From Candidatus Kerfeldbacteria bacterium (GTDB taxonomy: Bacteria > Patescibacteriota > Patescibacteriia > UBA10025 > JAHIVO01): a stretch of 64,000 nt of DNA. Positions 9,846-36,516 of this stretch are shown here, one piece after another; the first letter of the stretch is position 1; the number at the start of each line of letters is the position of its first letter. The notes beneath the pieces were generated by a model. That model was not told the DNA's origin. It worked only from the letters and a program-made list of their open reading frames with translations, and did no database searches. The position numbers and the translations under genes are program-made. The DNA lies in NCBI GenBank assembly GCA_016214565.1, contig JACROE010000002.1, positions 472,007-536,006 on the forward strand, in the 5' to 3' direction.

Positions 9846-10225
9846 TTTTTTTGAAAATCAAGCGCGAGTGAATTAATACAATACCGCTGGCCGGTTGGTT
9901 TTGGTCCATCGGGAAAGACGTGTCCCAGATGGGCGCCGCATTTTGAGCACAGTACTTCGATACGCCGTGTGCCCAGCGAATCGTCAGCTTCCGTCCTGAT
10001 GTGCGCCTGATGCGCCGGATCCCAGAATGACGGCCAGCCAGTGCCGGAATCGAATTTCGTAGCCGATGAAAAAAGTTCTTGGCCACAATTAACACAGACA
10101 TAGATGCCGTGCGCTTTATTATTGAGCCACTTACCTGACCCGGGCGGTTCGGTGCCTTTGAGAAAACACACGTTGTATTGTTCTGGCGTTAGGTTGTTAT
10201 TGGTGTTCGGGTGAGGTTGGTTCAT
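9842..10225 (-). CDS. msrB: Peptide-methionine (R)-S-oxide reductase
   Basis: CxxC...CxxC zinc-site pairs and GTGWPSF...RxExxCxxCxxHLGHVF SelR signature. Confidence 0.85.
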
Positions 10226-15152: not shown

Positions 15153-16070
15153 CTAATTGGCAGCGTTGCCATTTATCCCATTCGTATTCTGATTGTCATT
15201 CGTAGTGCCATTTGTATTGGCCGTATTAACATTTTCCGCCTCATCTGCATCCTCTCCTTCACTATTAATAGGATTTATTGAGCCGACGCCGTTAATATTT
15301 TCCTTAACCGTTGGGGGATTTCCTGCGTACTCAATTGATCCAGCACCGTTCAGGGTGGCGGTAAGTGATTCAGTCGCGTGTACTTCGGCGCTCCCAGCAC
15401 CATTCAGGGTGGCTTCAACATCTTTCCCCCGCAATGCTTGCGCATCGATCTCACCTGCGCCATCAATCGTCACCAGCTGACTGTCAGCAGTTCCACTTAA
15501 TTGCATCTCACCTGCACCATTCAGGGTGGCTTCGAGACGCAACAGTTGAAGCTCGAGCTTCGCATCAGTCGCTCCATTGAATACGATACGCAGCGAATCC
15601 TGTGTCAGAGTACCCTCGGTTCGCATATCCATCAGCCCGTCAATGGTTAGATCGCTTAGCTCTGTAACGGTCAGGGTGTAGATGATTGATTCTTTCTTAG
15701 GGCCGACGAAAAAAAGTCGTTGGAACCAGGGGAGATCCGCATCAATGATCAGCTCTCCATTGCGGACTTCAGTCGAGACCCACTGGTGGTATTCTTCGGG
15801 AGCGGCCAGCGTGAGCGAAACCGTTTCACCTTGTTTGAGCACGAGTTGGCCGACGCCGGCTTGGAGGTATATTTTGGTGAATGGTTCAATAGTGATGTTT
15901 GCGGTTTTGGCGTCACCATAACGGTCTTGGCCAAAAAGCATGACCACGATGATAATGAGCGCGATGGTGACCAATAGCCAATTGAGATTAGTTCCTGATT
16001 TGTGCGTTGCTTCATGTTGCTTTGGCTGCTCGACTGGTTGTGAGGGAGAGGGCTTAATTGACTCGTCCAT
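15153..16070 (-). CDS. DUF2807 (GIN-domain, putative auto-adhesin head) protein with an N-terminal TM anchor and an Asn/Thr-rich tail
   Basis: Repeated ATLNGAGS / IDGAGE segments characteristic of DUF2807 beta-helical heads. Confidence 0.45.
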   Translation of the reverse strand: MDESIKPSPSQPVEQPKQHEATHKSGTNLNWLLVTIALIIIVVMLFGQDRYGDAKTANITIEPFTKIYLQAGVGQLVLKQGETVSLTLAAPEEYHQWVSTEVRNGELIIDADLPWFQRLFFVGPKKESIIYTLTVTELSDLTIDGLMDMRTEGTLTQDSLRIVFNGATDAKLELQLLRLEATLNGAGEMQLSGTADSQLVTIDGAGEIDAQALRGKDVEATLNGAGSAEVHATESLTATLNGAGSIEYAGNPPTVKENINGVGSINPINSEGEDADEAENVNTANTNGTTNDNQNTNGINGNAAN

Positions 16071-16144: not shown

Positions 16145-16684
16145 CTAGACTAACCATTTTTGGAATGACTTCCGTAGCTGGGAAATTTTTGGGTCAATAA
16201 CCACCTGGCAATATGGTGCGTCTGGATTTGTTTCATAATAATTATGATGGTATGGTTCCGCTTCAAAGAATTTTCCAGCTGGTTGGATCTCGGTAACGAT
16301 TGGGGCAGAAAAAGTTTCCGCCTCATTAAGCTCATCCCGCACTCGTTCGGCGACCGTCCGCTGCGCACCATCATGGTAAAAAATAGCCGATCGGTATTGG
16401 CTACCAACGTCGTGTCCCTGTCGATTGAGTTGAGTGGGGTCATGGGTGCCAAAAAATATTCTCACCAACTGTTCATACGGAATGATTGCTGGATCGTAGG
16501 TCATTTGGATTGCTTCTGCGTGGCCCGTGTCGCCACCGGAGACGTCGTCATAGTGAGGTGCGTCTATGGTACCCCCGGTATATCCAGGGACGACACGGCT
16601 TACTCCGCGCACCCGTTTGAATACCGCCTCAGTGCACCAGAAACAACCACTAGCGAATGTAGCATAGGTATCGGAGGTAGGCAT
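16145..16684 (-). CDS. msrA: Peptide-methionine (S)-S-oxide reductase
   Basis: Active site GCFWC near the N-terminus, plus the HDPTQ and YHQ(N)Y motifs. Confidence 0.85.
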   Translation of the reverse strand: MPTSDTYATFASGCFWCTEAVFKRVRGVSRVVPGYTGGTIDAPHYDDVSGGDTGHAEAIQMTYDPAIIPYEQLVRIFFGTHDPTQLNRQGHDVGSQYRSAIFYHDGAQRTVAERVRDELNEAETFSAPIVTEIQPAGKFFEAEPYHHNYYETNPDAPYCQVVIDPKISQLRKSFQKWLV

Positions 16685-16823: not shown

Positions 16824-17126
16824 TTATAGTGTTTCGTCCGAAGAATTGGCAGGCGGCTGACGGCGTCTACGCCAAGCGGCCAGCGATGGGTATACATACA
16901 TCCAGAGCCCAGTAAGTGCCATCAGAAATAGCGCAATACTAAAGATAGGGCTGAGTTTATTGTGAAGATTGCGGACTTGGCCCAGATTAATTGACCCTAA
17001 AATATTATGTGCAATGTCAGGATATTTCATGATAATGCCGGTGATGGCCATGATGAGTCCGAGGGTGCTAATGATTAACACGAGCAATCGATGAATTTTC
17101 TTCGTAATAATATAGGTATTGGTCAT
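16824..17126 (-). CDS. Hypothetical small membrane protein, co-directional and abutting the cytochrome-b5 gene
   Basis: 100 aa, two hydrophobic helices. Its start lies 3 nt downstream of the stop of the 17129-17980 gene. Confidence 0.3.
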   Translation of the reverse strand: MTNTYIITKKIHRLLVLIISTLGLIMAITGIIMKYPDIAHNILGSINLGQVRNLHNKLSPIFSIALFLMALTGLWMYVYPSLAAWRRRRQPPANSSDETL

Positions 17127-17128
17127 AC

Positions 17129-17980
17129 TTAGTCGTCCTCGTATTCATATCCCCCGTCATCATTTCCCGAACTGGCGGGTGGAGTCTGGGAATTAATTTG
17201 TTGTTCGGTTGTCTGAATTGTTTCCGTGGTTGTTGTGCTATTAAGTGTGCCGATCGCATAATTGGCTAGCTGAGATCGAGCGTTTGAGGAATGACTGCCT
17301 TGGCCGGCTTTCGTCGAAAATGCGCTCGTGGCATCTCTTCCGCAATAGGGAATGATGATAGCCCGCCCACCGGGATGGGCGTTCAGGTAATTTGTTACAG
17401 CGTATACGGTATTACTTATAATAATCCAGCAATCCCCGGCGCTATTGTGGCGCGCAACAGTGGCAGTGTCGAGTGTTACGGAAGTACCTGTGGTGGTTGG
17501 CGTTGCAGCGCTTGGTTGGGCGGCGGTGTTTGTGGCTGGCGTTTCCGTATTGACGTTATTATTTTGTGTGGTGGTGGGCGTTATACTTTCGAGTGTGCCG
17601 AGATAAAATCGGGCTAGCTCAGAAACGGCGAATGAAGAATGAGTAGTACCGCGCCCATCTTTAGTACTGAATGCCGTAGTTGCGTCTTTGCCGCAATATG
17701 GAGCGATAACGTCACGTCCGCCGGGATGGGTCGCCAGATAGCTGGATACACCATATATTTTCCCACTAATAAGCAGCCAACAATCCTCAATTGTATTGTG
17801 CTGCGCGAGAATCTCCATGCCCGAGGGAGTTTGTGTTGTTTTGTTCGTTAACGCACCATTGGTTGTGGTGTTCGTGGTTGGTGTCCCAATCTGCAGGTAC
17901 GGGTATCCAGTCCAAATTGCGATAGAAATAATGATAATAATGAGCACGCCAATAGTGCCAAAAAGCAGTTCTGATTTCAT
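17129..17980 (-). CDS. Membrane-anchored protein with two tandem cytochrome b5-like heme-binding domains
   Basis: Two copies of HNxxxDCWxxISxxxYxVxxYLxxHPGG...CGxDATxAFSTK...H. These are the HPGG motif plus the second His ligand. An N-terminal TM helix and Thr-rich linkers separate them. Confidence 0.55.
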   Translation of the reverse strand: MKSELLFGTIGVLIIIIISIAIWTGYPYLQIGTPTTNTTTNGALTNKTTQTPSGMEILAQHNTIEDCWLLISGKIYGVSSYLATHPGGRDVIAPYCGKDATTAFSTKDGRGTTHSSFAVSELARFYLGTLESITPTTTQNNNVNTETPATNTAAQPSAATPTTTGTSVTLDTATVARHNSAGDCWIIISNTVYAVTNYLNAHPGGRAIIIPYCGRDATSAFSTKAGQGSHSSNARSQLANYAIGTLNSTTTTETIQTTEQQINSQTPPASSGNDDGGYEYEDD

Positions 17981-18285
17981 AAGGTATCGTTGTATTGTTT
18001 GATACGCGTCATGTCTAGACTTTTTTCAAGCTGATTCATGATTGTTTACTATGGTGCCTCAGTGGCTTCAAGCTTCTTTCTTTACTTTTGTGCTTGTGAC
18101 GGTGTACCGCTAATTTCTATAGTATACGGGAGAATCAAAGCTCCGACCAGCCCCGTCAACACTCCAATGTATAAATAATATCGGTTATTATTAAAATGTG
18201 TTACAGAAATTTTGAAATTTTTTTGTAGATAAAATAATACAACCATACAAACGTATAGTGGCCGATGTTTATTTTCGAGCGCGTA

Positions 18286-27442: not shown

Positions 27443-27538
27443 ACAGTATATGCAAAATAAATCAAGCGTTTTGATATTTTTGAGCTAATATTAGCAAAAA
27501 GAAAAACACCCTTCTTTTGGAAAGATGTTTTTCATTAA

Positions 27539-27662
27539 ACTGGCAATGGCCTACTGTTCCGCCCCGGCTTGCGGGGAGTATCATCGGCGCGGCCAGGCTT
27601 AACGACTGAGTTCGAGATGGGATCAGGTGTGGCCCCGGCGCTTGAATCACCAGAGGCCAGGA
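27539..27662 (-). rRNA. rrf: 5S ribosomal RNA
   Basis: Minus-strand sequence CCTGGCCTCTGGTGATTCAAGCGCCGGGG...CCGATGATACTCCCCGCAAGCCGGGG...GGCCATTGCCAG matches the 5S helix I-V consensus. About 122 nt. Confidence 0.8.
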
Positions 27663-27775
27663 AATAAATACATTATTCCCTGCGCCCTTAGCGATCAAAT
27701 ACTTGCTTGATCTAGGGAGCAATTAACAAACTAACACGTTACCTTCATCAGTGATGTGTTAGCACATCAGTGATT

Positions 27776-30835
<3,060 letters not shown>

Positions 30836-33620: not shown

Positions 33621-34523
33621 TTAATCAATCAATCCATCGAGGATGATACTGAACGAACGAAGTCCCTGGTTCATGATGGGTGTGGCGATTTGCACGCACG
33701 AAGCGCCGGCATGGAGAAAGTCGCGGACGTCTGCGCCAGTGGTAATACCGCCGACGCCGATGTAGCTGACCTGCTCACCAAGGATTGTGTGCAGCTGGTG
33801 GATTTGCCCGAGGGCGATTGGTTTGAGTGCAGCGCCTGCTAGACCACCGAGGCCTGAAGCGGGAGTAATCTCTGGCTGGCCGTTGGTTTTCAGTGCCAGG
33901 GCATTCGGGAAGGTGTTGCATACCGTGATCGCTTTGACGATCGGGTACGCGGAGAGGCATGACCCGACTTGCTGGAGCAGGTAGGGGTCGGCGATTGGTG
34001 AGAGCTTCACGGATAGTCGGCAGCTCGTGCCGATTTGCCGCGTGACCGCATCGAGGATCGCCGCAATCATCGTGGGGTCAAAGCTGGCAATACGCTTTTG
34101 TTTCCCGCCATCCCAGATATTGGGGCAACCGAGATTGAGCTCGATCAGATCCACATGCGCTTCAGCCGCCACCTTTGCCATCATCGCGTATTCATCCGGC
34201 GTGAAGCCAGCGATGCTGAAGCCAAGCGGTTTTCCGACACCATGACTGATTTGGTTCATCTCAGGCAGGTTCCGACGGTAGTATTCGATTCCCGGATTGG
34301 CCAGGCCGATTGAATTGAGGGAGAAGTATGTATCGTGATAGTACACGTCGCCGCTATTGCCCAACCGTGACTCAATCGTCGCAGAGCCGACCATAATCAT
34401 TGCGGTGGCAGAACGGGAAAATTGCTGTACACCGAGATCGCCGTCCAGGTGTTTGCAGGTGCCGGCAGCATTCATGACCGGATGCTCCAGCTCCAAACCG
34501 AGACAGGTACAAAATAAATCCAT
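33621..34523 (-). CDS. pyrD: Dihydroorotate dehydrogenase, class 1 catalytic subunit
   Basis: LEHPVMNAAGT, LNLGCPN, GVGGITTGADV FMN-barrel motifs. 300 aa. Confidence 0.8.
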   Translation of the reverse strand: MDLFCTCLGLELEHPVMNAAGTCKHLDGDLGVQQFSRSATAMIMVGSATIESRLGNSGDVYYHDTYFSLNSIGLANPGIEYYRRNLPEMNQISHGVGKPLGFSIAGFTPDEYAMMAKVAAEAHVDLIELNLGCPNIWDGGKQKRIASFDPTMIAAILDAVTRQIGTSCRLSVKLSPIADPYLLQQVGSCLSAYPIVKAITVCNTFPNALALKTNGQPEITPASGLGGLAGAALKPIALGQIHQLHTILGEQVSYIGVGGITTGADVRDFLHAGASCVQIATPIMNQGLRSFSIILDGLID

Positions 34524-34600
34524 GGTATTCCTCCAGGGGTTATAGAATGGTAATGTTCTTTTTTGGCTAAGAAAAAACCATCGAGCTTAGCTCGACGGTT

Positions 34601-35371
34601 TTAGTATCCAGTAAATTTTTCGATGATGATTTGTGTGTCGGGGAGGCCCATTTCTTTGAGTAGTGCCACCATGGCCTCCACCATGCCCGGCGGTCCGACA
34701 ATCATATAGGTCGGCCTCATGTGGTCGGGCACGGTTTTTTTGATCAAGTCTGCATTGATGAATCCGGTCTGTCCCTTCCACTCATGTTCGAGATGTGTCA
34801 GGTCACTCATCGTAGGCAAATAGTGCAGTTTGTCTGATCGCTTGGTGAGCGCTTCAATTTCCGGGAGATAGGATGAATTACTGATACAGCTGTTGCCGTA
34901 GAGTAGATAAAGCTGGCGTGGTGATTTGGTATCAATACTATATTTGATCATGCCGAGGAATGGTGTGATGCCGATACCGCCGGCGAGAAATACTAACGGT
35001 TGATTGACATCATCAGGCATGGTGAAGTGACCAAAGGGTCCCATCAAGTTGATTGCTTCGCCTGGTTTCAGCTTTTCAATCCGCTGTTTGAATGCCGAAG
35101 TCCCCATGCGCATGCCGAACGATATGTTCGATTCAGTAGGCGATGAGGCAATCGACATGCTGCGGCGGTTGCCTTTGGGTACTTTCATATCCAGATCGGG
35201 GAGAATCAAAGTCATGAATTGACCTGGTTTGAAATCAAAACCGGTCGGTTTTTCAAAAACAAATTCTCGCGTCTCATGCGCGATGATTCGTTGGCTCATC
35301 AATTTGGCTGCGTATTCAGGCATAGGTTCGTCAGTCAGTATACATCGGAATCCTAATTGCATAAAGCCCAC
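34601..35371 (-). CDS. PyrK-like FAD/NAD(P)-binding oxidoreductase (ferredoxin-reductase fold) lacking the C-terminal [2Fe-2S] cysteine cluster
   Basis: RxMSIAS (RxYS flavin motif), GGIGITP NAD-binding motif. Only 2 Cys in the whole protein. Lies directly upstream of pyrD. Confidence 0.55.
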   Translation of the reverse strand: MGFMQLGFRCILTDEPMPEYAAKLMSQRIIAHETREFVFEKPTGFDFKPGQFMTLILPDLDMKVPKGNRRSMSIASSPTESNISFGMRMGTSAFKQRIEKLKPGEAINLMGPFGHFTMPDDVNQPLVFLAGGIGITPFLGMIKYSIDTKSPRQLYLLYGNSCISNSSYLPEIEALTKRSDKLHYLPTMSDLTHLEHEWKGQTGFINADLIKKTVPDHMRPTYMIVGPPGMVEAMVALLKEMGLPDTQIIIEKFTGY

Positions 35372-35466: not shown

Positions 35467-36516
35467 ATGTCTGAACCATTGACGATTATTCGACCGGACG
35501 ATTTTCACGTCCACCTGCGGCAGGAAAATGCTCTGCGAGTGGTCGCGCCTTACACGGCGCGGCAATTTGCTCGGGCGCTCATCATGCCCAATTGCACCCC
35601 GCCGATTACCACTACTCAGCAGGCACAGGAGTATCGCCAACAGATTCTCGGATGCGTTGGTGATCATTCTTTCGAACCGCTGATGACGCTGTATCTCACC
35701 GATCAGACGACGTCTGATGAAATTATGCAGGCAAGCGATTCTGGCATCGTTTTTGCAGCAAAGTTGTATCCGCGCGGTGCTACCACAAATTCTGAAACCG
35801 GAGTGACTGATATCCTCGGACTGTATCCGGTATTGGAAACGATGGAAGAATGTGATTTGGTGCTGTCAGTGCATGGCGAGGTCACACTCACCACGCATCC
35901 GAATGCCGATGTATTCGATTTTGAGCGCATCTTCATCGAGCAGGTGCTGCAACCGATTATCAATCGGTTTTCTCATTTGCGAGTGGTACTCGAACATATC
36001 ACGACTCAGGACGCGGTTGATTTCGTCCTCTCCTCCTCCCCGCACGTTGCTGCCACCATCACGCCGCAACACCTCATGTATAATCGGAATGATTTATTGG
36101 TGGGGGGATTGCATCCGCATCGATACTGTCTGCCAATCGTGAAGGCGGCCACTCCGCATCAGTCGGCCTTGCGCAGCGTGATTACTCTGGACAGTCCGAA
36201 ATTTTTTCTCGGGACTGACTCAGCGCCGCATGCACGTACGGCAAAAGAATCAGCCTGCGGTTGCGCGGGATGTTTCTCGGCACCATGCGCGCTGGAATTG
36301 TACGCACAGGTTTTTGAGGAGTGCAACGCACTGCATCTCCTTGAAGCGTTTGCCAGTCGGCGCGGGGCGCATTTTTATGGACTGCCCCTCAACGCTGGCA
36401 CCGTTACCCTGCTCAAAAAGCCGCGGTGCGTGCCACGATCGATTCCCTATGGGGAATCCGGGGAATTGATTCCATTCTGTGCCGGCGAAGAACTCGCCTG
36501 GCGATTGGAATCGTAG
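35467..36516 (+). CDS. pyrC: Dihydroorotase (type II, E. coli-like)
   Basis: N-terminal RPDDFHVHLRQ metal-ligand motif, NCTPPITT, downstream His/Asp ligands. 349 aa. Confidence 0.8.
   Translation: MSEPLTIIRPDDFHVHLRQENALRVVAPYTARQFARALIMPNCTPPITTTQQAQEYRQQILGCVGDHSFEPLMTLYLTDQTTSDEIMQASDSGIVFAAKLYPRGATTNSETGVTDILGLYPVLETMEECDLVLSVHGEVTLTTHPNADVFDFERIFIEQVLQPIINRFSHLRVVLEHITTQDAVDFVLSSSPHVAATITPQHLMYNRNDLLVGGLHPHRYCLPIVKAATPHQSALRSVITLDSPKFFLGTDSAPHARTAKESACGCAGCFSAPCALELYAQVFEECNALHLLEAFASRRGAHFYGLPLNAGTVTLLKKPRCVPRSIPYGESGELIPFCAGEELAWRLES

Follow-up and report, generated by a model that had tools for sequence, protein, structure and literature searches.

A Tandem Cytochrome b5 Gene and an Adjoining Two-Helix Membrane Protein Gene

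We analyzed a 64,000-nucleotide stretch of contig JACROE010000002.1 of a Candidatus Kerfeldbacteria bacterium (hereafter the window), and in particular a gene for a membrane-anchored protein with two tandem cytochrome b5 domains together with the adjoining gene for a 100-amino-acid, two-helix membrane protein, here called SMALL. Both genes lie on the minus strand, as do all features described below as parts of them. The b5 gene (17129..17980) is an ATG-to-stop open reading frame (ORF) encoding 283 amino acids, with its stop codon at 17129-17131, and the SMALL ORF (16824..17126) begins with an ATG 2 nt past that stop; a GAGGA sequence upstream of the SMALL start sits within the 3' end of the b5 gene. 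An earlier, sequence-only reading of this DNA had mentioned a co-transcribed small membrane protein, and SMALL proves to be the key partner of the b5 protein. The b5 protein matches, at 100% identity, the NCBI entry P0001, which is named 'cytochrome b5 domain-containing protein [Candidatus Kerfeldbacteria bacterium]', and the source genome is that of a member of the Candidate Phyla Radiation (CPR)/Patescibacteria. Membership of this group agrees with the earlier description of the genome as reduced; the contig is 1,116,013 bp long.

The Pfam model Cyt-b5 (PF00173) matched two stretches of the b5 protein at 133.4 bits, compared with a gathering score of 23.7 (E = 2.8e-39); NCBIfam gave no match for either the b5 protein or SMALL. 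The protein begins with MKSE; the S-type signature K-x-E-L precedes a membrane anchor at residues 4-25 (17906..17971), where AlphaFold2 placed a helix and hydropathy peaked at residues 5-23. Domain 1 (residues 53-131; 17588..17824) carries the motif H61-N-x3-D66-C67-W68 ... H85-P-G-G ... H114, with H85 and H114 as predicted axial ligands and a C67/C96 pair, and domain 2 (residues 169-248; 17237..17476) carries H178-N-x3-D183-C184-W185 ... H202-P-G-G ... H230, with H202 and H230 as predicted axial ligands and a C184/C213 pair. These motifs agree with the earlier description, except that the second His, which had been put about 25 residues further on, follows the HPGG His by 29 residues in domain 1 and 28 in domain 2. 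Among 42 homologues, H61, C67, W68, H85, C96, H114, H178, C184, W185, H202, C213, and H230 were invariant, and a smaller alignment of 16 homologues likewise showed invariant axial His residues, the Trp of DCW, and one Cys pair per domain.

The AlphaFold2 model gave both b5 domains a predicted local distance difference test score (pLDDT) mostly above 85-90, with the linkers below 50. When the model was compared with the PDB by Foldseek, 53 matches were obtained at E <= 0.001, those listed being b5-fold proteins; the top match was 1CXY, cytochrome b558 of Ectothiorhodospira vacuolata (target TM-score 0.91, root-mean-square deviation 2.2 A, 40% identity), which was also the top sequence match (E = 1e-16). 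The axial His residues of the window protein align with the heme ligands of 1CXY and of housefly b5. These results indicated that both cytochrome b5 domains of the window protein are complete, bis-His, and of the b558 type known from the bacterial periplasm, and they are predicted to bind heme. The central claim of the sequence-only reading, a membrane-anchored protein with two tandem bis-His b5 domains, is thus upheld by the very PF00173 search that it had suggested, by the invariant His residues, and by the fold match to 1CXY.

The segment between the anchor and domain 1 is rich in Thr and Asn, and that between the two domains in Thr, Asn, Pro, and Ala, whereas a Thr/Gln-rich stretch after domain 2 runs into an acidic C-terminal tail, GNDDGGYEYEDD (17132..17173), which the alignment and a listing of family tails show to end in DD. 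Across the family, whichever the partner gene, most C-termini are acidic runs closing in DD (...YEYEDD, ...EEEEDD); a three-domain subgroup tied to a cyclophilin gene bears a C-x17-C motif at its C-terminus.

Location of the b5 Domains

Several lines of evidence place the b5 domains outside the cytoplasmic membrane, and we regard this location as very probable. Family members have exactly two Cys residues per domain, and C67/C96 and C184/C213 of the window protein align with both Cys residues of 1CXY; cytochrome b558 has been distinguished from eukaryotic b5 by its disulfide and its signal peptide (PMC8877833). Long relatives join arrays of b5 domains with Big_7 Ig domains (E = 1e-20), an HYR domain, or an InlB B-repeat, and three single-domain relatives (L055, L073, and L075) have lipoprotein-type signal peptides ending in FGC or LGC. 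A gene for a membrane-anchored cyclophilin lies near the b5 gene in seven loci, and genes for DsbA-like thioredoxins do so in several. The most frequent partner of the family, described below, is of the NOX type, and NOX-type proteins send electrons outward. The Cys pair, the relatives with Ig-like domains or lipoprotein signals, the cyclophilin and DsbA-like neighbors, and the NOX-type partner therefore all argue for extracytoplasmic b5 domains, which would be exported by way of the N-terminal anchor and held by the putative disulfides C67-C96 and C184-C213 and by flexible linkers.

Diversity of the b5 Family and Its Gene Partners

When 5.8 billion proteins were searched through a word index, 84 relatives of the b5 protein came up, all with a precomputed Cyt-b5 domain. 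In a scan of one genome per species, relatives were located in at least 219 species genomes (219 stretches); 79 loci (L001-L079) were analyzed, and all ORFs at these loci were clustered to find recurrent neighbors. The clade is patescibacterial almost throughout, with a few records labeled Chloroflexi or DPANN archaea; several third-party annotation (TPA) records carry tags such as 'Gammaproteobacteria', and these labels were judged untrustworthy. Such a spread, together with the NCBI annotation and a published link between ferric reductases and b5 (bioRxiv 10.1101/2021.11.17.468889), shows the earlier view that a b5 protein of this kind is unexpected here to be exaggerated. The same b5 clade occurs in records labeled Woesearchaeota, Pacearchaeota, and Aenigmatarchaeota (L011, L028, L043, and L059; taxonomy as labeled).

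The 81 b5 proteins at the analyzed loci contain one (32 proteins), two (35), three (9), four (3), five (1), or eight (1) b5 domains, which indicates that a tandem architecture is normal for this clade. In a tree of individual domains, domains 1 and 2 of the closest relatives of the window protein formed separate clades, indicating an old duplication, but in many other tandems both domains of one protein paired together, indicating repeated duplication. Some members are joined to membrane domains within a single polypeptide. An 843-amino-acid protein (L037, 3119-5650) combines a Ferric_reduct membrane domain lacking the FAD and NAD domains, a probable seventh helix, and five b5 domains; by its domain content, this protein joins a membrane di-heme module to a b5 array in a natural fusion. 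DoxX is fused ahead of two b5 domains in two proteins (L011, 3440-5104; L028, 3458-4810), and DUF2231 is fused to two b5-like domains in two others (P0061 and P0062). Two distant b5 matches from GC-rich genomes (P0081 and P0082) have a signal peptide, one b5 domain, and the same Cys pair, and their C-terminal ~200 amino acids finish like an outer-membrane beta-barrel (...FQLGR); in these proteins, an outer-membrane protein may serve to tether a b5 domain.

Two types of partner gene recurred beside the b5 genes. In 43 of the 79 loci, a gene for a NOX-like protein of ~430 amino acids, composed according to Pfam of a Ferric_reduct membrane domain followed by FAD_binding_8 and NAD_binding_1, abuts the b5 gene immediately upstream, and in at least 14 of these 43 its stop overlaps the b5 start by 4 nt; in seven loci, the NOX-like gene is divergent, with the cyclophilin gene in between. 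SMALL lies directly downstream of b5 in 19 of the 79 loci, as well as in the window. The two partners were never found together within 4 kb at any of the 79 loci. Fourteen loci have neither, and three of these contain b5 fused to a membrane redox domain (L037, L011, and L028), and two are cut by a contig end. Starting instead from SMALL, we found a Cyt-b5 gene directly upstream of five of six homologues on unrelated contigs, the upstream genes encoding 388, 131, 128, 174, and 153 amino acids. In the exception (L088, 648-4261), SMALL is followed by ZIP and DsbA-like genes, and the place of the b5 gene is taken by a tRNA-like stretch, a serine recombinase gene, and a 445-amino-acid ORF of unknown function; the recombinase and the tRNA-like stretch suggest that a mobile element displaced b5.

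The b5 anchor also differs with the partner, its signature being K-x-E-L-I-I-G in SMALL-linked proteins and MKK(L/Y)xTISLFIFWAVV in those linked to NOX-like proteins. This covariation suggests a helix-helix contact between the anchor and the partner.

No Ferric_reduct domain was detected in the 64-kb window, and tblastn with two NOX-like queries matched only the FNR-like part at 34.6-35.2 kb. The window is not a CPR pFre-b5 cluster, which is defined by a Ferric_reduct gene no more than 10 kb from b5. An association between NOX-like and b5 genes was reported previously as CPR-specific and of unknown function, with a ferric-reductase domain in 185 of 1427 CPR genomes, in a paper in which PepSY and DUF4405 go unmentioned (bioRxiv 10.1101/2021.11.17.468889). 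Our literature searches turned up no description of the b5-SMALL pair. Thus, although the b5 clade and its link to ferric reductases were already known, the two-gene form in which SMALL replaces the NOX-like partner appears to be undescribed.

SMALL as a Putative Di-Heme Membrane Cytochrome

The SMALL family is a tight one: when 1.84 billion representative proteins were searched exhaustively with its profile, 215 clusters only were returned, and nearly all homologues in the best 150 of these 215 span 60-147 amino acids. Two longer relatives were set aside. One (P0332) joins PEMT/ICMT to SMALL and may be a gene-call fusion; the other (P0340) ends in a C-terminal half (...SYTHLDVYKRQ...) that we take to be a translated Illumina Nextera adapter, presumably an artifact past about residue 67.

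AlphaFold2 modeled SMALL as a helical hairpin (pLDDT 89.5) with a helix at residues 4-34, a short helix at 36-43, and a second long helix at 48-89. Its Lys and Arg residues gather at both termini, which fits an N-in/C-in topology. Across 58 sequences, H12, R13, M26, G30, R52, H55, S59, F62, and G73 were invariant, and M69 (at least 90%), M76, Y77, and P80 were nearly so; the key residues are H12, R13, M26, and G30 in helix 1 and R52, H55, M69, and G73 in helix 2. The two helices form an in-register internal repeat (hhalign profile-profile P = 1.5e-6), each with the pattern H-x13-M-x3-G, in which Met at His+14 was found in 53 of 53 and 52 of 53 sequences for the two helices, respectively, and Gly at His+18 in all 53 for both. 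Since the helices are antiparallel, H12 should come level with M69 toward the inner face of the membrane, and M26 with H55 toward the outer face. From the sequence and the secondary-structure output, the two ligand levels are predicted to be ~14 residues, or ~21 A, apart. The NOX-like proteins at these loci show His-x13/14-His on two helices, and the His/Met spacing of SMALL would be that of two-heme membrane cytochromes. SMALL shares with the PepSY_TM/DUF4405 cytochromes conserved candidate heme ligands near both membrane faces.

SMALL scored just short of the Pfam gathering scores, with 28.5 bits against PepSY_TM (gathering score 28.8) and 24.6 bits against DUF4405 (26.7), and gave weaker matches to cytochrome b561 and Ni_hydr_CYTB, and all four are families of heme-b membrane cytochromes. 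Among 18 SMALL relatives, Pfam matches at E < 0.1 were obtained to DUF4405 in 18 and to PepSY_TM in 15, matches to Ni_hydr_CYTB were seen in 14, and some relatives carry PepSY_TM or DUF4405 labels in a precomputed Pfam table. DUF4405 and the small ferrosome protein FezC were shown in 2024 to bind heme b (PMC11334425). In the same study, the heme sites of FezC were modeled as being made by homodimerization, and FezC and DUF4405 were related to FoxB (PepSY-like) and MsrQ (PMC11334425).

An FNR-Like Gene and a SMALL-FNR Fusion

A possible source of electrons for SMALL came from one of its relatives. In P0347 (333 amino acids), a SMALL unit at residues 4-85 is followed by a C-terminal FNR-like domain (Pfam NAD_binding_1), in which NCBIfam recognized portions of flavohemoprotein-, BenC-, and Fre-type reductases. 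This fusion implies that the C-terminus of SMALL is cytoplasmic (N-in/C-in), and it recreates the NOX plan of a membrane part joined to an NAD(P)H/FAD domain. The window contains a free gene of this kind, an FNR-like FAD/NAD(P)H oxidoreductase at 34601..35371 on the minus strand (Pfam FAD_binding_6 and NAD_binding_1; 240 amino acids with the NCBI start, beginning at ~35323). The FNR part of P0347 is more similar to its product (33% identity, E = 1e-45 over 238 amino acids, with a shared C-terminal FTGY) than to the dehydrogenase domain of the NOX-like proteins (30%, E = 1e-24), and three further genomes of the SMALL type have orthologues (on contigs of 1,147,868 bp and 379,756 bp, and in GW2011_GWA2_48_9). 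We therefore list the FNR-like protein as a candidate cytoplasmic electron donor to SMALL, an assignment that we hold to be possible but doubtful.

The sequence-only reading had called this gene PyrK-like and offered its product as a possible reductase partner of the b5 protein. The similarity to P0347 supports a part in electron supply indirectly, by way of SMALL, rather than that of a direct b5 reductase. The gene does not qualify as a canonical PyrK: its product, with only two scattered Cys residues, lacks the C-terminal [2Fe-2S] cysteine motif of PyrK, the electron-transfer subunit of dihydroorotate dehydrogenase B, and the best PyrK model scored 38 bits against a cutoff of 224, whereas generic FNR-type reductases scored 60-97 bits. 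It lies 77 nt upstream of a dihydroorotate dehydrogenase gene (33621-35371 for the two, minus strand), whose product best fits the type 1A (fumarate-dependent 'oxidase') model, under the cutoff of that model. This adjacency to PyrD is not kept in relatives, and a gene of the Zn-ADH family precedes FNR in L086 and L087. A conserved operon of ADH and FNR genes was also rejected for the window, in which the divergent gene at 35467-36516 is unrelated to the Zn-ADH of L086 and L087.

A Proposed Split NOX-Like Module and Alternative Explanations

Considering these results together, we propose, with moderate confidence, that the b5 protein and SMALL form a split minimal NOX-like module that is predicted to carry electrons from the cytoplasm to the outside. 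SMALL, with both termini in the cytoplasm, would dimerize into a four-helix bundle holding two b hemes, like FoxB/PepSY_TM, DUF4405, and FezC; because the PepSY_TM/DUF4405 cytochromes enclose their two hemes in a core of at least four helices, the two-helix monomer would need to form such a homodimer. A cytoplasmic FNR-like flavoprotein, possibly that at 34601-35371, would reduce the inner heme of SMALL with NAD(P)H, and electrons would then pass through the outer heme and the b5 domains to an external acceptor. The heme of both proteins would need to be scavenged, as CPR bacteria are not known to make heme.

As external acceptor, Fe(III), reduced for iron uptake, is the most likely; O2, or a role as general electron sink of a fermenter, is less likely. 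FRE/NOX, PepSY_TM/FoxB, and DUF4405/FezC are families linked to iron reduction. Some SMALL relatives are labeled 'iron-regulated membrane protein' in some databases. ZIP genes lie beside b5-SMALL pairs in three loci (L052, L057, and L063), besides the one that follows the b5-less SMALL in L088, and other metal transporter genes near such pairs encode FTR1 (L090), a CDF protein (L089), and an ABC-3 permease (L084). Iron was favored on account of the iron-linked families that resemble the partners, the 'iron-regulated' labels, and the metal transporters nearby.

A number of observations weigh against the proposed electron-transfer module. The Pfam scores of SMALL fall narrowly below the gathering scores. 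Its profile gave a best E of ~4 against PDB sequences (estrogen receptor and E. coli HyaC), with FoxB absent; hhalign against 45 NOX-like membrane domains returned P = 0.07 and a probability of 0.8%, in a weak alignment that nevertheless sets H12 of SMALL on a heme-ligand His of helix 5; and when the hairpin was run against the PDB with Foldseek, nothing matched at E <= 0.001, the hits being generic helical hairpins. Around the b5 anchor, the charge bias is weak, no more than mildly N-in (1.5 K+R in the 4.6-residue N-terminal tail versus 1.2 in the 15 residues past the helix). On the donor side, P0347 stands alone as a fusion of its kind, on a 3.5 kb contig where no b5 gene adjoins it, the FNR-like gene lies 17 kb from the b5-SMALL pair, its family is very widespread (2725 homologues), and its co-occurrence with SMALL is limited to one clade. 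Standing below threshold for all heme-cytochrome Pfam families, and with no significant connection, by structure or by profile, to FoxB or the ferric-reductase domain, SMALL could be a docking or assembly subunit, either an anchor partner or a heme-loading factor, that carries no electrons, with b5 reduced by other means or acting as a sensor; the covariation of anchor and partner, too, shows contact and not electron flow. We nevertheless consider such a subunit improbable. At the analyzed loci, SMALL occupies, in a mutually exclusive manner, the slot of a complete NOX-like electron transporter, its fusion to an NAD(P)H/FAD reductase would be senseless for a passive subunit, and an invariant His and Met at cytochrome-like spacing are present in both of its helices.

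The b5 arrays could also be imagined to capture and relay heme outside the cell, like the NEAT-domain Isd proteins, on behalf of a heme-auxotrophic cell, with SMALL as the membrane receiver. Proteins with one to eight heme-binding domains, flexibly linked and anchored to the surface of cells that are not known to make heme, would suit that role, but b5 is most commonly partnered by an NAD(P)H/FAD/di-heme reductase, and the conserved neighbors of the pair include no heme ABC importer. Moreover, bis-His six-coordinate b5 sites grip heme tightly and are classic electron carriers, and we give heme capture little credence. Equally little likelihood attaches to b5 domains that face the cytoplasm and are reduced directly by the FNR-like flavoprotein, after the manner of eukaryotic b5 and its reductase, to serve MsrA/MsrB or a lipid-modifying enzyme. 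Cytochrome b5 reductases do share the FNR family with the protein at 34601-35371, MsrA is the next downstream gene in the window, L002, and L013, and the weak anchor charge bias would permit this orientation. The Cys pair, however, fits the periplasmic, disulfide-bonded b558, relatives bear Ig-like domains and lipoprotein signals, the adjacency to MsrA is confined to three close relatives, and no desaturase or hydroxylase gene is conserved nearby. The sequence-only reading had named the two Msr enzymes as possible redox partners, and neither suggestion held: MsrA (gene at 16145-16684) lacks an export signal, and its gene comes after the pair nowhere but in the window, L002, and L013, and the MsrB gene (9842-10225) lies 7 kb from a pair whose b5 domains are very probably extracytoplasmic. 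Both are probably bystanders. The preferred explanation is thus still the split module of b5 and SMALL.

Comparison with Known Systems

The closest structural counterpart of the b5 domains, b558 of E. vacuolata (1CXY), shares with them the HPG and HS heme ligands, the Cys pair, and a loop before the second His that is 4 residues longer in both. It is, however, one soluble domain of unknown function with a cleaved signal peptide, unlike the window protein with its two tandem domains, uncleaved anchor, Thr/Asn-rich linkers, acidic tail, and dedicated membrane partner. Eukaryotic b5, a single domain without a disulfide, is tail-anchored at its C-terminus, faces the cytosol, and serves desaturases and P450s. 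The window system resembles it and its NADH-cytochrome b5 reductase in the b5 fold, the bis-His ligation, and an FNR-family ultimate donor.

The CPR clusters of pFre and b5 described by Hehenberger, Cahill et al. (bioRxiv 10.1101/2021.11.17.468889) involve the same b5 clade in the same phyla, and their arrangement is the one recovered here in 43 of 79 loci. That paper (bioRxiv 10.1101/2021.11.17.468889) centers on a tyrosine-ligated, MAPR-like b5 class, whereas the window protein is a bis-His tandem, and the window differs from pFre clusters in having the two-helix SMALL in place of a Ferric_reduct domain. SMALL itself resembles PepSY_TM, DUF4405, and FezC (FoxB 7ABW; PMC11334425) in its near-threshold Pfam scores and in conserved His residues at both membrane faces, and FezC is likewise small. 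In contrast, SMALL has two helices, no PepSY domain, and Met where the second His is expected, and it pairs with a cytochrome b5 rather than with flavinylated or PepSY domains.

A further parallel concerns the division of labor between membrane and cytoplasm. In E. coli, MsrQ, a membrane di-heme protein with a six-helix Ferric_reduct domain, works with the soluble Fre and serves the molybdoenzyme MsrP. As in MsrQ/Fre, the proposed system would combine a membrane heme protein without a dehydrogenase domain, a separate FNR-family reductase, and an extracytoplasmic redox target, a pattern that the P0347 fusion and the free FNR-like gene of the window match; it differs in its two-helix membrane part, its b5 acceptor, and a donor that is inferred.

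Other Features of the Window

The 17981..18285 intergenic region upstream of the b5 gene, read on the minus strand, contains sigma-70-like hexamer pairs at 18216-18187 and 18204-18175; these were located by a consensus scan and are possible, weak candidates for the promoter of the two-gene unit. In the same kind of scan, no terminator was detected between SMALL and MsrA. Just past MsrA, the product of a gene at 15153-16070 (minus strand), probably another surface protein, belongs to DUF2807 ('adhesin head GIN domain') and has a membrane helix at its N-terminus and a C-terminal tail rich in Asn and Thr. The DUF2807 gene and the other neighbors in the window, which encode DedA, EamA, a GARS-like protein, an ABC-2 transporter, and peptidase C39, showed no relation to the b5-SMALL pair. 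Rfam models identified bacterial 23S and 5S rRNA genes at 27538-30830 (minus strand), the 23S rRNA measuring 3061 nt against a model of 2925 positions, a surplus of ~135 nt. No 16S rRNA was found by Rfam across the whole 64-kb window; thus no 16S gene directly precedes the 23S gene, the distance to it on that side being at least 33 kb.

Implications for Electron Transfer in CPR Bacteria

CPR bacteria have been portrayed as fermenters without electron-transport chains, in which a few orphan electron carriers are left without explanation (PMC8080830). The b5 clade is almost always tied to a membrane redox module, and this points to a conserved route by which electrons leave the cell in these organisms. 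The use of such an exit route could lie in regenerating NAD(P)+, in reducing iron before uptake, or in exchanging electrons with a host. The b5-SMALL cassette is its simplest form and, with two small proteins, obvious point mutants, and an easy spectroscopic read-out, is experimentally tractable. If SMALL is indeed a dimer of hairpins with two hemes, it would offer a minimal model, found in nature, of electron transfer across a membrane. How heme auxotrophs acquire heme and load it is a further question posed by the module. More speculatively, and as a generalization that we think unlikely though worth stating, the ultra-small, symbiotic CPR bacteria, and possibly DPANN archaea, might share an extracellular electron transfer system based on heme b and dispensing with c-type cytochromes, in which a wire of one to eight exported b5 domains, running through the cell envelope, receives electrons from swappable membrane inputs (NOX-like, ferric-reductase alone, DoxX, DUF2231, or SMALL with a soluble FNR-like reductase). 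If this is true, SMALL would be the smallest known transmembrane di-heme cytochrome, and fermenters regarded as 'non-respiring' would gain an external electron sink, or iron reduction, from scavenged heme.

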